Origin: Candidatus Hodarchaeota archaeon
GTDB taxonomy: Archaea > Asgardarchaeota > Lokiarchaeia > Sigyniarchaeales > SOKP01
Reading direction: 5' to 3'
Assembly (NCBI GenBank): GCA_048886685.1
Contig: JBHLKM010000012.1
Coordinates: forward strand, 577 to 64,576
DNA: 64,000 nt
The notes under the pieces were generated by a model. That model was not told the DNA's origin. It searched no databases and saw nothing but the letters and a program-made list of their open reading frames with translations. Made by a program: the position numbers and the translations under genes. Positions within the stretch are counted from its first letter, which is position 1. The number at the start of each line of letters is the position of its first letter. Shown piece by piece: positions 47,920 to 60,401 of the stretch.

Positions 47920-48138
47920 ATGCCTTTTAGGTTTAACACATGTCCTCATTGTGACGAGAAAATTATATTTAAAATTGAATTAGGGGATATTGATTCTAAC
48001 CAGTATCCTGCTCCAGTTTATATCGTATGTAAAAATTGTAACAAAATATCTACTTTCTATGTAGATAGCCTATTGAGAATATCTTATAAAGAGCTTGAAA
48101 AAAAACCTGGTGGTATAACAACAATTCATACCGAATAA
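47920..48138 (+). CDS. small zinc-ribbon protein
   Basis: 72 aa with CPHC...CKNC. Confidence 0.4.
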   Translation: MPFRFNTCPHCDEKIIFKIELGDIDSNQYPAPVYIVCKNCNKISTFYVDSLLRISYKELEKKPGGITTIHTE

Positions 48139-48264
48139 ATTATTTTTTAAGCAATATTTTTTAAAAGAATTAGGTTTATTGATTAATTTAATAAAAAATC
48201 TTTTCTTAATGTTTCATAGGGAAATATTTATACAGCAACTAAAATACCTAAATTTTATACTAAC

Positions 48265-49827
48265 ATGTCCTATGAATTAGAAGATATTTCGGGAATTGGT
48301 AAATCAATCGCGGAAAAAATGAAAGCGGCAGGAATAGATTCAATTGAAAAACTGGTTGCTGTAAAACCCAATGATTTAGTAAAATTAAAAATAAAAGGCG
48401 TAGGAAAGGCAACAGCAGAAAAAATTATTACTAGTGCTAAAGAGATTTTTGAGGAAGTAGGTGGAAAAATAAAGTCTTCAGTAGTAATAAAAGAAAAAAC
48501 TGAGGAGGATGTTACTTCAAAACCTAAACCAAAACCAGATTCTAAGGTAAAAGGATCTGAAATAAAAGAATTAATTAGACAACAAGCAGAATGTAATATT
48601 GGTCTTGTAGGCCATGTAGATCACGGTAAAACCACCTTAGTTAAATCTTTAACAGGGGATTGGACTGATCGACATTCTGAAGAGCAAGAAAGAGGCATTT
48701 CGATAAAATTAGGATATTCTAATGCGACGATTCTTTATTGTCCTTCATGTAATGAATATACAACTGCCTACCTTGCAGAAAAAAACAGGAAGAAGGGACA
48801 ACCTCGATTTATTTGTTCAAAATGTAATGGTAACTTAGAATTTAGGCGTAATATTTCTTTTGTAGATGCACCAGGTCACGAGATTTTGATGGCAACCATG
48901 TTAAGTGGAGCCTCCTTGATGGATGGAGCATGTCTTTTAATAGCTGCTGACGAACAATGTCCTCAACCTCAAACTCGGGAACATTTAGCTGCTTTAAATA
49001 TTGCAGGGATTAAAAATATTATAATATTGCAAAATAAAATTGATGCTGTTTCTCGAGAACAAGCTTTAGAAAATTACCAACAGATCAAAGAATTTGTAAA
49101 AGGTACAGTAGCTGAGAACGCCCCAATTATACCTGTATCAGCAGTTTTTGAGTCAAATATGCATCTTGTTGTGAAAGCTTTTGAAGAAATAATCCCAACT
49201 CCAGAGTTTAAAGAAGATGAATCATTTCAATTTTTAATAGCAAGATCGTTTGATATTAATCGCCCTGGTAAAGAGATTATTGATTTAAAAGGTGGTGTAA
49301 TAGGGGGATCTGTATTAAAAGGAAAAATTGAAGTAGGGGATCAAATAGAAATTAAACCAGGAATTCGTATTAAGGATGAATATATCCCGATAAAATCTAA
49401 GGTAGTAAGCATTAGTCAAGGAAATAATTATTTGAAAACTGCTAAACCGGGTGGATTAATAGGTTTAGGTACAAACTTAGATCCTGCTTTAACTAAAGGT
49501 GATCATCTAATTGGACATTTAGTTGGAGGACCTGGAACTCTTCCAGGAATATTAACTGAAGTTGAGTTAAATGTCCATCTTTTAGATCGAGTGATTGGTT
49601 CTGAAGTCCAAATGAAGGTTCAACCTCTCAAACATGGCGAAAAATTGTTATTAGTTGTTGGGACAGAAAAGACTGGAGGAACCGTAACAAAAATATTAAA
49701 AAATTCGACTATAATAAAACTTACTCCACCTATATGTCCTCCTGAGAACTTCATTTATGCAATTTCTCGTATAATTAATAGACGTTATCGTTTAATAGGA
49801 TATGGTGAAGAAATTAATCATACTTAA
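48265..49827 (+). CDS. eif2g: translation initiation factor aIF-2 gamma with N-terminal (HhH)2 extension
   Basis: From about aa 105 the protein is collinear with aIF2-gamma (NIGLVGHVDHGKTTL, zinc knuckle CPSC...CSKC, DAPGHE, QNKID, domains II/III). Residues 1-62 contain two helix-hairpin-helix motifs (ISGIGKSIAEKM, IKGVGKATAEKI), followed by a K/P-rich linker. Confidence 0.9.
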   Translation: MSYELEDISGIGKSIAEKMKAAGIDSIEKLVAVKPNDLVKLKIKGVGKATAEKIITSAKEIFEEVGGKIKSSVVIKEKTEEDVTSKPKPKPDSKVKGSEIKELIRQQAECNIGLVGHVDHGKTTLVKSLTGDWTDRHSEEQERGISIKLGYSNATILYCPSCNEYTTAYLAEKNRKKGQPRFICSKCNGNLEFRRNISFVDAPGHEILMATMLSGASLMDGACLLIAADEQCPQPQTREHLAALNIAGIKNIIILQNKIDAVSREQALENYQQIKEFVKGTVAENAPIIPVSAVFESNMHLVVKAFEEIIPTPEFKEDESFQFLIARSFDINRPGKEIIDLKGGVIGGSVLKGKIEVGDQIEIKPGIRIKDEYIPIKSKVVSISQGNNYLKTAKPGGLIGLGTNLDPALTKGDHLIGHLVGGPGTLPGILTEVELNVHLLDRVIGSEVQMKVQPLKHGEKLLLVVGTEKTGGTVTKILKNSTIIKLTPPICPPENFIYAISRIINRRYRLIGYGEEINHT

Positions 49828-49865
49828 ATTAGTATAATCATCCCAAATCCGTATATAGAAGCTAT

Positions 49866-58574: not shown

Positions 58575-60401
58575 ATGAAAGATTTAGAACTGCAAAGAAA
58601 GAGTTTACCGAATGAACCCGGAGTTTATTTATTCGCCGATAAAGAGGGTTCTATAATTTATATTGGCAAAGCAGTTAATTTAAGAAAAAGAGTTAACCAA
58701 TATTTCTTGAAAGCTAGCTATATTGATCCTTATTATGAAGAAAAAATTAAGGAATTGGTAAGTAAAATTAGCTCTATTGAATTTATAGTCACCGAAAATG
58801 AAAAGGAAGCACTGCTCCTAGAGCATATTCAGATAAAAAAGCACCTTCCCAGATATAATGTTATTATGAGGGATTCTAAATCTTATCCCTGGGTTGGAAT
58901 CTTTTACAGCGAGGACTTTCCCCGGATAAGAGTATTAAGAAATCCTGAAAAATTTTCTCAAGAAAACTTATTTTTAGGACCATACACAGATAAAAAGGAG
59001 ATTATTAGAATATTACGAGATTTAAGAAAGATTTTTCCTTATTGTTCATGTAAGAAACCGATTAAAAAAAAAAGAAGACCATGTTTATATTATCAATTAA
59101 AACTCTGTCCGGGTCCATGTTTCACTGAAATCACTAAAGAGGAATATCGAGATAATATTACAAAAATCGAAATGTTTTTAAGAGGAGAAACAAGTCAATT
59201 AAAAAATGAAATCGAAGAAAAAATGAACGCAGCTGCAAGAAAGCAGGAGTTTGAAGTAGCAGCTTTTTGGCGAGATAAACTAGAAGATATTGATCATGCA
59301 ACTGACGAACAACATGTTTTATTAGATTATGAATCTAATAAGGATATTATTGGATATAGTAGTGAGCAAAACTTCTTTGCAATGGTTATAATCCATATTA
59401 GGGAAGGGAGAATCATCAATAAAAATTCTTTTGATTTTGATTTAAGAGAAAAAGTAGCACATAAAGATGGGATTTTTACTTCCATTATAGAACAATATTA
59501 TCAAGGATTTAAAACACAATTGCCTGAAGCAATAATAGTTCCTGAAATAAAGGAAGATCTTAATGTTTTAATCAATTATTTGAAGGATATAAAGAAAGAG
59601 ATACAAATAAGAACTCCAGTCGATGATTATGAAAAAGGTCTAACCAGAATTGCAAATAAGAACGCCAGGGTTATCGTTCAACAGCAATTACAAATGGAAC
59701 ATATTAAAATGGATGAGAGAGACTTCAGAGATGAAGTGTTAAAAGAAGCAAAAGAAAGGCTGAATCTTCCAACAGAACCTCGTATTATTGAAGGATTTGA
59801 TATATCAAATATAGAAGGTAAGGATGCAACTGGATCAATGGTTTATTTTTTAGAAGCAAAACCTTATAATAAAAATTATAGGCATTTCAAAATAAGAACT
59901 AAATCGATACCTGATGATGTGGCTATGATGAAAGAAGTATTAATAAGAAGATATTCCATGCTTTTAAAGAGAAATTTAGAGCTCCCCGATTTAATTATTG
60001 TTGATGGTGGAAAAGGTCAACTTAATGTTGGGATTTCGGTTTTACAAGAGCTAGGTCTTAAAATACCAATAATTGGATTAGCTAAAAAATATGAGGAAAT
60101 CTACATCCCGAATAAGAAAGATCCAATTGTACTCCCTAAAAATTCACCTCTACTAAAATTATTTCAGCGAGTTAGAGATGAAGCTCATCGTTTCGCTGTC
60201 AGGCTTCATAAAAAGCAGAGAAAAAAACGTATGGTTGGATCAGTATTAGATTATATTGAAGGAGTTGGACCAGTTACTAGAAATAAGTTATTGAATCATT
60301 TTGGAAGTGTAGATAATATCAGAAATTCTACAATAGAAGAAATATCTCAAATTGTTGGAAAAAAACTAGCTAAGTTAATTTCAGAAGAATTAAACAAATA
60401 A
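58575..60401 (+). CDS. uvrC: excinuclease ABC subunit C
   Basis: GIY-YIG domain (GVYLFADKEGSIIYIGKAVNLRKRVNQYF), Cys cluster, UVR-like coil, endonuclease V-like domain and C-terminal (HhH)2 (IEGVGPVTRNKLLNHFGS). Confidence 0.9.
   Translation: MKDLELQRKSLPNEPGVYLFADKEGSIIYIGKAVNLRKRVNQYFLKASYIDPYYEEKIKELVSKISSIEFIVTENEKEALLLEHIQIKKHLPRYNVIMRDSKSYPWVGIFYSEDFPRIRVLRNPEKFSQENLFLGPYTDKKEIIRILRDLRKIFPYCSCKKPIKKKRRPCLYYQLKLCPGPCFTEITKEEYRDNITKIEMFLRGETSQLKNEIEEKMNAAARKQEFEVAAFWRDKLEDIDHATDEQHVLLDYESNKDIIGYSSEQNFFAMVIIHIREGRIINKNSFDFDLREKVAHKDGIFTSIIEQYYQGFKTQLPEAIIVPEIKEDLNVLINYLKDIKKEIQIRTPVDDYEKGLTRIANKNARVIVQQQLQMEHIKMDERDFRDEVLKEAKERLNLPTEPRIIEGFDISNIEGKDATGSMVYFLEAKPYNKNYRHFKIRTKSIPDDVAMMKEVLIRRYSMLLKRNLELPDLIIVDGGKGQLNVGISVLQELGLKIPIIGLAKKYEEIYIPNKKDPIVLPKNSPLLKLFQRVRDEAHRFAVRLHKKQRKKRMVGSVLDYIEGVGPVTRNKLLNHFGSVDNIRNSTIEEISQIVGKKLAKLISEELNK

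Follow-up and report, generated by a model that had tools for sequence, protein, structure and literature searches.

Can a folded nucleic-acid-binding domain be added to one of the most conserved factors of translation initiation, and what might it do there? aIF2/eIF2 is the universal core of start-codon selection in archaea and eukaryotes, and its gamma subunit is among the most conserved proteins known. The question is raised by a gene in the 64,000-nucleotide (nt) stretch of Asgard archaeal DNA analysed here (contig JBHLKM010000012.1, positions 577-64,576, hereafter the window), which comes from a genome of 4.4 Mb in 47 contigs. The gene encodes an aIF2-gamma whose GTPase core is preceded by two helix-hairpin-helix motifs ((HhH)2, or HhH2) and a linker. 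A first-pass annotation of the DNA had pointed to positions 48265-48576, which are codons 1-104, as an obligatorily translated extension. We find that the fusion is almost certainly real and translated, and that this addition, unusual for so conserved a factor, is kept by selection across a Lokiarchaeial family.

The core identifies the protein. It is covered by Pfam matches to GTP_EFTU (amino acids (aa) 110-311), GTP_EFTU_D2 (aa 343-407) and eIF2_C (aa 431-515), and two NCBIfam aIF2-gamma models exceed their equivalog cut-offs (TIGR03680, 553.5 bits vs 514.5; NF003077, 559.6 vs 315), both aligning only from aa 105/106 to 514, that is, without the extension. The P-loop GHVDHGKT (aa 116-123) is invariant in orthologs, the zinc-knuckle residues Cys159, Cys162, Cys184 and Cys187 are at least 90% conserved, and the core is confidently modelled by AlphaFold2 (AF2). 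The genome holds a single strong aIF2-gamma match, the next matches having E values of 1e-13 or weaker. By these sequence criteria the open reading frame (ORF) is the genome's initiation-factor ortholog and not a SelB or EF1A paralog. Its conservation predicts binding of GTP and initiator methionyl-tRNA (Met-tRNAi), and assembly with the alpha and beta subunits.

The extension begins with a compact HhH2 head. When aa 1-104 were scanned alone, Pfam HHH_5 (PF14520) matched aa 4-60 (E 1.6e-12; 48.2 bits vs a gathering cut-off of 27) over positions 3-57 of its 57, and PF00633 (HHH) matched the second motif. The two hairpins are GIGK (aa 10-13) and GVGK (aa 45-48), and their glycines G10, G12, G45 and G47 reach at least 90% conservation even with paralogous heads in the alignment. 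An AF2 model of the whole protein, built on a 54-sequence alignment, has a mean predicted local distance difference test score (pLDDT) of 83, with a helical head at 77-88 (77-90 with the separate head model included); modelled alone, the head reaches 84.5 and forms helices at aa 13-21, 27-32, 35-40 and 48-65. Its best Foldseek matches are the N-terminal domains (NTDs) of RadA/Rad51, with query-normalized TM-scores (TMq) of up to 0.74 and root-mean-square deviations of 1.3-2.0 A over 56-61 residues at 28-36% identity. The Foldseek E values are weak (3.9e-3 at best, for a 70-residue model) because the domain is small, and we relied on TM-score, deviation and the agreement with Pfam. Among sequences in the PDB, aa 1-104 match the N-terminal HhH of haloarchaeal eL32 best (E 2.9e-6), followed by Pyrococcus furiosus Rad51 and topoisomerase V. 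RadA models align by their NTD part only (aa 3-78), and no Pfam match to the Rad51/RecA ATPase core was found in the protein; as it lacks this core, it is not a RadA, and only the head is alike.

Behind the head lies a linker that is disordered in the AF2 model (pLDDT below 50 at aa 68-91). Across 118 orthologs of the window's family it measures 19-48 aa, with 28% lysine, 12% proline and a median net charge of +4, and its sequence drifts while the basic composition stays. It is followed by a predicted helix. The eIF2-gamma chains of yeast, human and trypanosome align from aa 97-102, in alignments that take in this helix and begin at yeast residue 88 and human residue 34, whereas solved archaeal aIF2-gamma chains (Methanocaldococcus jannaschii, Pyrococcus abyssi, P. 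furiosus and Saccharolobus solfataricus) align only from aa 106 and start 4-7 residues before its equivalent. The first-pass annotation thus described the architecture well, with regard to the two HhH motifs, the RadA/Rad51 resemblance, the K/P-rich linker and the usual archaeal start just before the G domain. Its placement of the G domain at about codon 105 agrees with where the NCBIfam models begin, except that the motif it named there, QQAECNIG, starts at aa 106.

The gene itself leaves little room for a shorter product. In the first 200 codons, ATG, GTG or TTG occurs in frame only as codons 1 and 19, as the first-pass annotation had noted for the stretch from codon 19 to the P-loop, and an in-frame TAG stands at 48217, 48 nt 5' of codon 1. 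An internal start in the window gene was accordingly rejected. A frameshift that separates two genes was likewise looked for and is excluded, because more than 100 independent assemblies keep the extension in frame; in the window gene, too, the frame is unbroken. An A/T-rich box about 35 nt upstream and a motif just before the ATG are kept at fixed spacing in about 20 orthologous loci. The upstream box contains TTTATA, a putative promoter element, and a second A/T-rich box directly precedes the ATG. Contigs from RNA libraries of relatives extend over the locus, one bridging 48257-48597 and others covering 48217-48440 and 48446-49829. These metatranscriptome contigs, which represent only relatives about 90% identical and 0.05 of the sampled words, were given no weight, since contigs cannot show starts and DNA carry-over is possible. 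Conservation leads us to place the start of the protein at codon 1. The description of the extension as unavoidable by an internal start stands for the window gene and not for every ortholog, as in 37 of 120 the segment from the HhH domain to the P-loop contains a Met codon.

Selection has acted differently on the parts of the protein. Among 43 orthologous genes, pairwise aa identity is 68% in the HhH2 head, 26% in the linker and 81% in the core, with ratios of nonsynonymous to synonymous substitution (dN/dS) of 0.19, 0.66 and 0.07, respectively, which are rough values as synonymous sites are near saturation (proportion of synonymous differences, pS, 0.59-0.68). This substitution pattern indicates that the HhH part is under purifying selection from codon 2 onward.

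The best 120 database matches to the protein (72-100% identity, 496-538 aa) all combine PF14520 with GTP_EFTU and eIF2_C, and include one contig from the original Loki's Castle assembly. We surveyed 301 genomes of the phylum, in which families and genera were coded (f1, the window's family; f2, a sister family; g3, a genus). Matches over the full length from residue 1 occur in 46 genomes, the window's own included, all of family f1; at 14 further f1 loci the HhH2 lies in the first exon of an intron-bearing gene (see below). The head is thereby present in at least 60 of the 66 f1 genomes with a match. Matches in other Asgard families of this survey begin only at about aa 100, in frames of 413-430 aa without an HhH head, and those in other archaeal phyla of the genome scan begin only at aa 98-111, with no HhH fusion. 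Outside the phylum, HhH-aIF2-gamma proteins were searched for with aa 1-70 non-exhaustively, among the best 150 matches. By these comparisons the head is restricted to one Lokiarchaeial family among those sampled.

Metagenome-assembled genomes whose aIF2-gamma is 72-85% identical to that of the window carry Thor-, Hermod-, Odin-, Hod-, Heimdall- or Lokiarchaeota labels at NCBI. These labels look unreliable, as those genomes that could be placed fall in the window's own family; the record titles of the full-length f1 genomes read Promethearchaeia or Promethearchaeota.

About 18 family members match only from aa 122 and at first sight lack the head. We rejected this reading, as the N-terminal 121 codons are intact upstream in another frame, with 29 nt (32 nt in one genome) in between. 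In 18 of the 66 f1 genomes, an insert of this length (32 nt in L054) interrupts the P-loop codons (GHVDHG^KT) one base into the lysine codon; the window gene is without it. Removal of the insert restores GHVDHGKTTL and the frame in all 16 loci read. The insert folds as helix-bulge-helix-bulge-helix, and each of the two cut sites follows the second base of a 3-nt bulge. Its central 4-bp helix shows the compensatory change ATGG/CCAT to ACGG/CCGT, and the inner hairpin co-varies freely. On per-sequence folds and compensatory changes read by eye, we regard the insert as a candidate tRNA-type (bulge-helix-bulge, BHB) mRNA intron. Gene callers split the intron-bearing genes into two ORFs, and exon-1 ORFs that run into the intron have been deposited as separate proteins of 133-161 aa (P0132, P0133 and P0136), ending in ...GHVDHG followed by MIMSFRHFP.

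In two sister lineages the position of the head is taken by something else. In genus g3 the HhH2 gives way to a C2HC zinc knuckle of 21 residues with a K-rich linker behind it; the knuckle is read from a TTG start preceded by GGAG, and the differences among three genomes are mostly synonymous. In sister family f2, which includes Ca. Harpocratesius repetitus, there is no folded head and aIF2-gamma begins with a K/S/T tail of about 105 aa with a net charge of +34. The presence of three different small basic or nucleic-acid-binding devices at one position points to non-specific nucleic-acid binding, and not to one protein partner, as the task of the appendage; of the arguments for such binding, we consider this the strongest.

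HhH pairs bind the sugar-phosphate backbone irrespective of sequence, and membership in this class predicts the same of the head. The data strongly favour a lineage-specific fusion in which an (HhH)2 of the RadA-NTD type, a flexible K/P-rich linker of about 30 residues and a canonical aIF2-gamma form one polypeptide. We propose that head and basic linker act together as a clamp for nucleic acid of any sequence, most probably RNA (16S rRNA helices or mRNA), which would tether the ternary complex of aIF2, GTP and Met-tRNAi to the message or the small subunit. Structures of archaeal initiation complexes show aIF2-gamma on rRNA helix h44, which it leaves after start-codon recognition (PMC7005279). 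A leash-like second hold on rRNA or mRNA could raise the local concentration, dwell time and occupancy of the complex, which would be useful where mRNAs mostly lack Shine-Dalgarno sequences, as in the host lineage. Its role would be comparable to that of the lysine boxes of eukaryotic eIF2-beta, moved onto the gamma subunit. The conserved hairpins, the RadA/Rad51-type fold, the lasting basic composition of the linker and the other small heads of sister lineages speak for this reading. The setting in translation favours it as well, namely the eL32 match, the HhH2 on the eL13-like and FKBP-type proteins described below, an aIF2-beta without lysine boxes and the place of aIF2-gamma on h44. On balance, we lean towards such an RNA-tethering function of head and linker.

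Several points weigh against this proposal. That the ligand would be RNA and not DNA is guessed from the context, and most of the genome's other HHH_5 proteins serve in DNA repair. HhH2 domains are also capable of contacting proteins, and AF2 does not confidently place the head against the core. As said, the dN/dS values are rough, and the RNA-library contigs, coming only from relatives about 90% identical, are incapable of showing where a transcript starts.

The HHH_5 proteins of the genome bear on this proposal and on its alternatives. A census lists mostly DNA enzymes, namely three RadA paralogs, UvrC, Hef/XPF and a Y-family polymerase, together with three proteins that do not belong to DNA repair. 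The first, of 371 aa, is an FKBP-type isomerase with the IF domain of FKBP26, preceded by an N-terminal HhH2 and a K/E-rich linker; within the genome, its head is the nearest paralog of that of aIF2-gamma (45% identity over aa 1-98). The second, of 115 aa, combines HhH2 with a zinc ribbon. The third, of 202 aa, is eL13-like (NF008914, E 3e-13, below the model cut-off) with a C-terminal HHH_5; this fusion is full length in 13 of 15 sampled f1 genomes, and the eL13-like part stands alone in other Asgard families where it was matched (frames of 100-126 aa). A second HHH_5 match within the window, at 60246-60398 on the forward strand, comes from the usual C-terminal HhH of a UvrC homolog, with UvrC RNase H domains upstream.

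Alternatively, the HhH2 head may be a protein docking or dimerization module, like the HhH2 pairs of XPF-ERCC1 or the C-terminal domain of the RNA polymerase alpha subunit, that recruits aIF2 to a partner, perhaps the HhH2-bearing eL13-like or FKBP-type protein. That unrelated proteins of the genome carry closely related terminal HhH2 domains is in keeping with this, as are the modest net charge of the head (median +3) and the established dimerization of HhH2 domains in other systems. That sister lineages have a pure poly-lysine tail or a zinc knuckle instead is, however, hard to square with a specific protein partner, and the best conserved positions of the head are those of the phosphate-binding G-h-G hairpins. 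We consider such docking unlikely. Binding of DNA, which would bring aIF2 near the nucleoid or a transcribing RNA polymerase (coupling) or reflect a moonlighting role, would suit the closest structural relatives of the head (RadA/Rad51 NTD, topoisomerase V and Y-family polymerases) and the prevalence of DNA-acting enzymes in the census. Yet aIF2-gamma works on the ribosome, the nearest PDB sequence match is to a ribosomal protein, an eL13-like protein of the same family also bears HhH2, and the neighbours of the gene encode surface proteins, with no DNA-related genes linked; this explanation appears improbable to us. That the extension is largely neutral, or untranslated with a downstream start and a frame open by chance or annotation habit, might be read from the A/T-rich box next to the ATG and the Met codons of some orthologs, but is scarcely credible in view of purifying selection from codon 2, a frame open in more than 100 assemblies, the lack of a usable start after codon 19 in the window gene, and the conservation (at least 90%) of a first hairpin (aa 10-12) encoded ahead of codon 19.

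A broader and rather doubtful idea is that HhH2 serves as a shared RNA-docking tag for the translation apparatus (aIF2-gamma, the eL13-like protein and FKBP) in this Shine-Dalgarno-poor lineage. Through such a tag on aIF2-gamma the ternary complex would gain a direct grip on rRNA or mRNA, and archaea would have independently invented an RNA-binding function that eukaryotes placed in the lysine boxes of eIF2-beta. It would also constitute a factor-driven route of mRNA/30S recruitment, independent of Shine-Dalgarno sequences, in close relatives of eukaryotes. Overall, the findings suggest that these relatives of eukaryotes altered the way in which the ribosome or the message holds the initiator-tRNA complex, and they bear on the mechanism of Shine-Dalgarno-independent initiation in Asgard archaea. 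Annotation pipelines label the extended proteins plain aIF2-gamma. The fusion is not mentioned in the full-text literature searched (Asgard, aIF2, HhH), an absence that is no proof of novelty.

The features discussed are collected in Table 1. Directly 5' of the aIF2-gamma gene, at 47920-48138 on the forward strand, lies a 72-aa ORF with the cysteine pairs CPHC ... CKNC, resembling a small zinc ribbon.

Table 1. Coordinates of the aIF2-gamma gene in the window, of its parts, and of related features in other loci.
Feature	Location	Strand	Basis or remark
aIF2-gamma gene with N-terminal extension	48265..49827	+	520 codons + stop; ORF, Pfam, NCBIfam
(HhH)2 domain, aa 1-64, 4-5 helices, two G-h-G hairpins	48265..48456	+	Pfam, AF2, Foldseek
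Disordered K/P/E/S-rich linker, aa 65-91	48457..48537	+	pLDDT, ortholog composition
Pre-G-domain helix, aa 92-104	48538..48576	+	AF2; eIF2-gamma alignments
Canonical core: G domain with zinc knuckle, domains II and III	48577..49824	+	Pfam, conservation
TATA-like element TTTATA, 33-38 nt 5' of the start codon	48227..48232	+	Sequence reading
Site of the relatives' 29-nt BHB-type candidate intron, after the first base of the Lys122 codon AAA	48628 (48628/48629)	+	Unoccupied in the window gene
Candidate intron loci in relatives	L038:5101-5129, L039, L040, L041, L042, L046, L047, L049-L057		
Zinc-knuckle heads of genus g3	L043:1802-2064, L056, L057		
K/S/T tails of family f2	L044:2025-2339, L045		
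HhH2-FKBP	G000:C5, locus L142:1483-2595	+	
eL13-like HhH2 fusion	G000:C4:130338-130940, locus L145:1483-2088	-	

Compared with canonical archaeal aIF2-gamma (S. solfataricus 2AHO, P. abyssi 1KJZ and M. jannaschii 1S0U), the window protein shares the core domains, the P-loop, the zinc knuckle and the presence of a single copy. Where the canonical proteins start within a few residues of the G domain, it adds 104 residues, comprising the HhH2, the basic linker and the helix. Eukaryotic eIF2-gamma (yeast Gcd11, 3J81_k; human EIF2S3) has an extension at the same position, and the short helix before strand 1 can be aligned. No match to aa 1-104 at E<=1 was found in the eukaryotic extensions (33-87 residues before the aligned part), in line with the earlier remark that these are of a different type; judged by sequence, they and the HhH head are not homologous. 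RadA/Rad51 has the same N-terminal (HhH)2 fold joined by a linker to an NTPase core, and the aIF2-gamma head differs from the RadA NTD by a two-residue insertion before the second hairpin.

Two systems come closer in arrangement or in role. Haloarchaeal eL32 (Haloarcula marismortui 1JJ2 chain X; 9L94 chain Q; PRK12766) likewise carries an N-terminal HhH2 and a low-complexity linker on a component of the translation apparatus. It differs in host protein, in lineage and in its linker, which is acidic where that of the window protein is basic, and the literature searched on eL32 gives no established function for its HhH head. The lysine boxes of eIF2-beta are K-rich disordered N-terminal segments with RNA and partner factors as ligands. 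They belong to the beta subunit and lack a folded HhH head, whereas in the present case the appendage is on gamma, and the aIF2-beta of the genome is of ordinary archaeal size (142-aa frame) without lysine boxes. Among translation components, haloarchaeal eL32 is the nearest precedent for bearing an HhH2, and the nearest functional analogy, should the head hold RNA as proposed, is provided by the lysine boxes of eIF2-beta.

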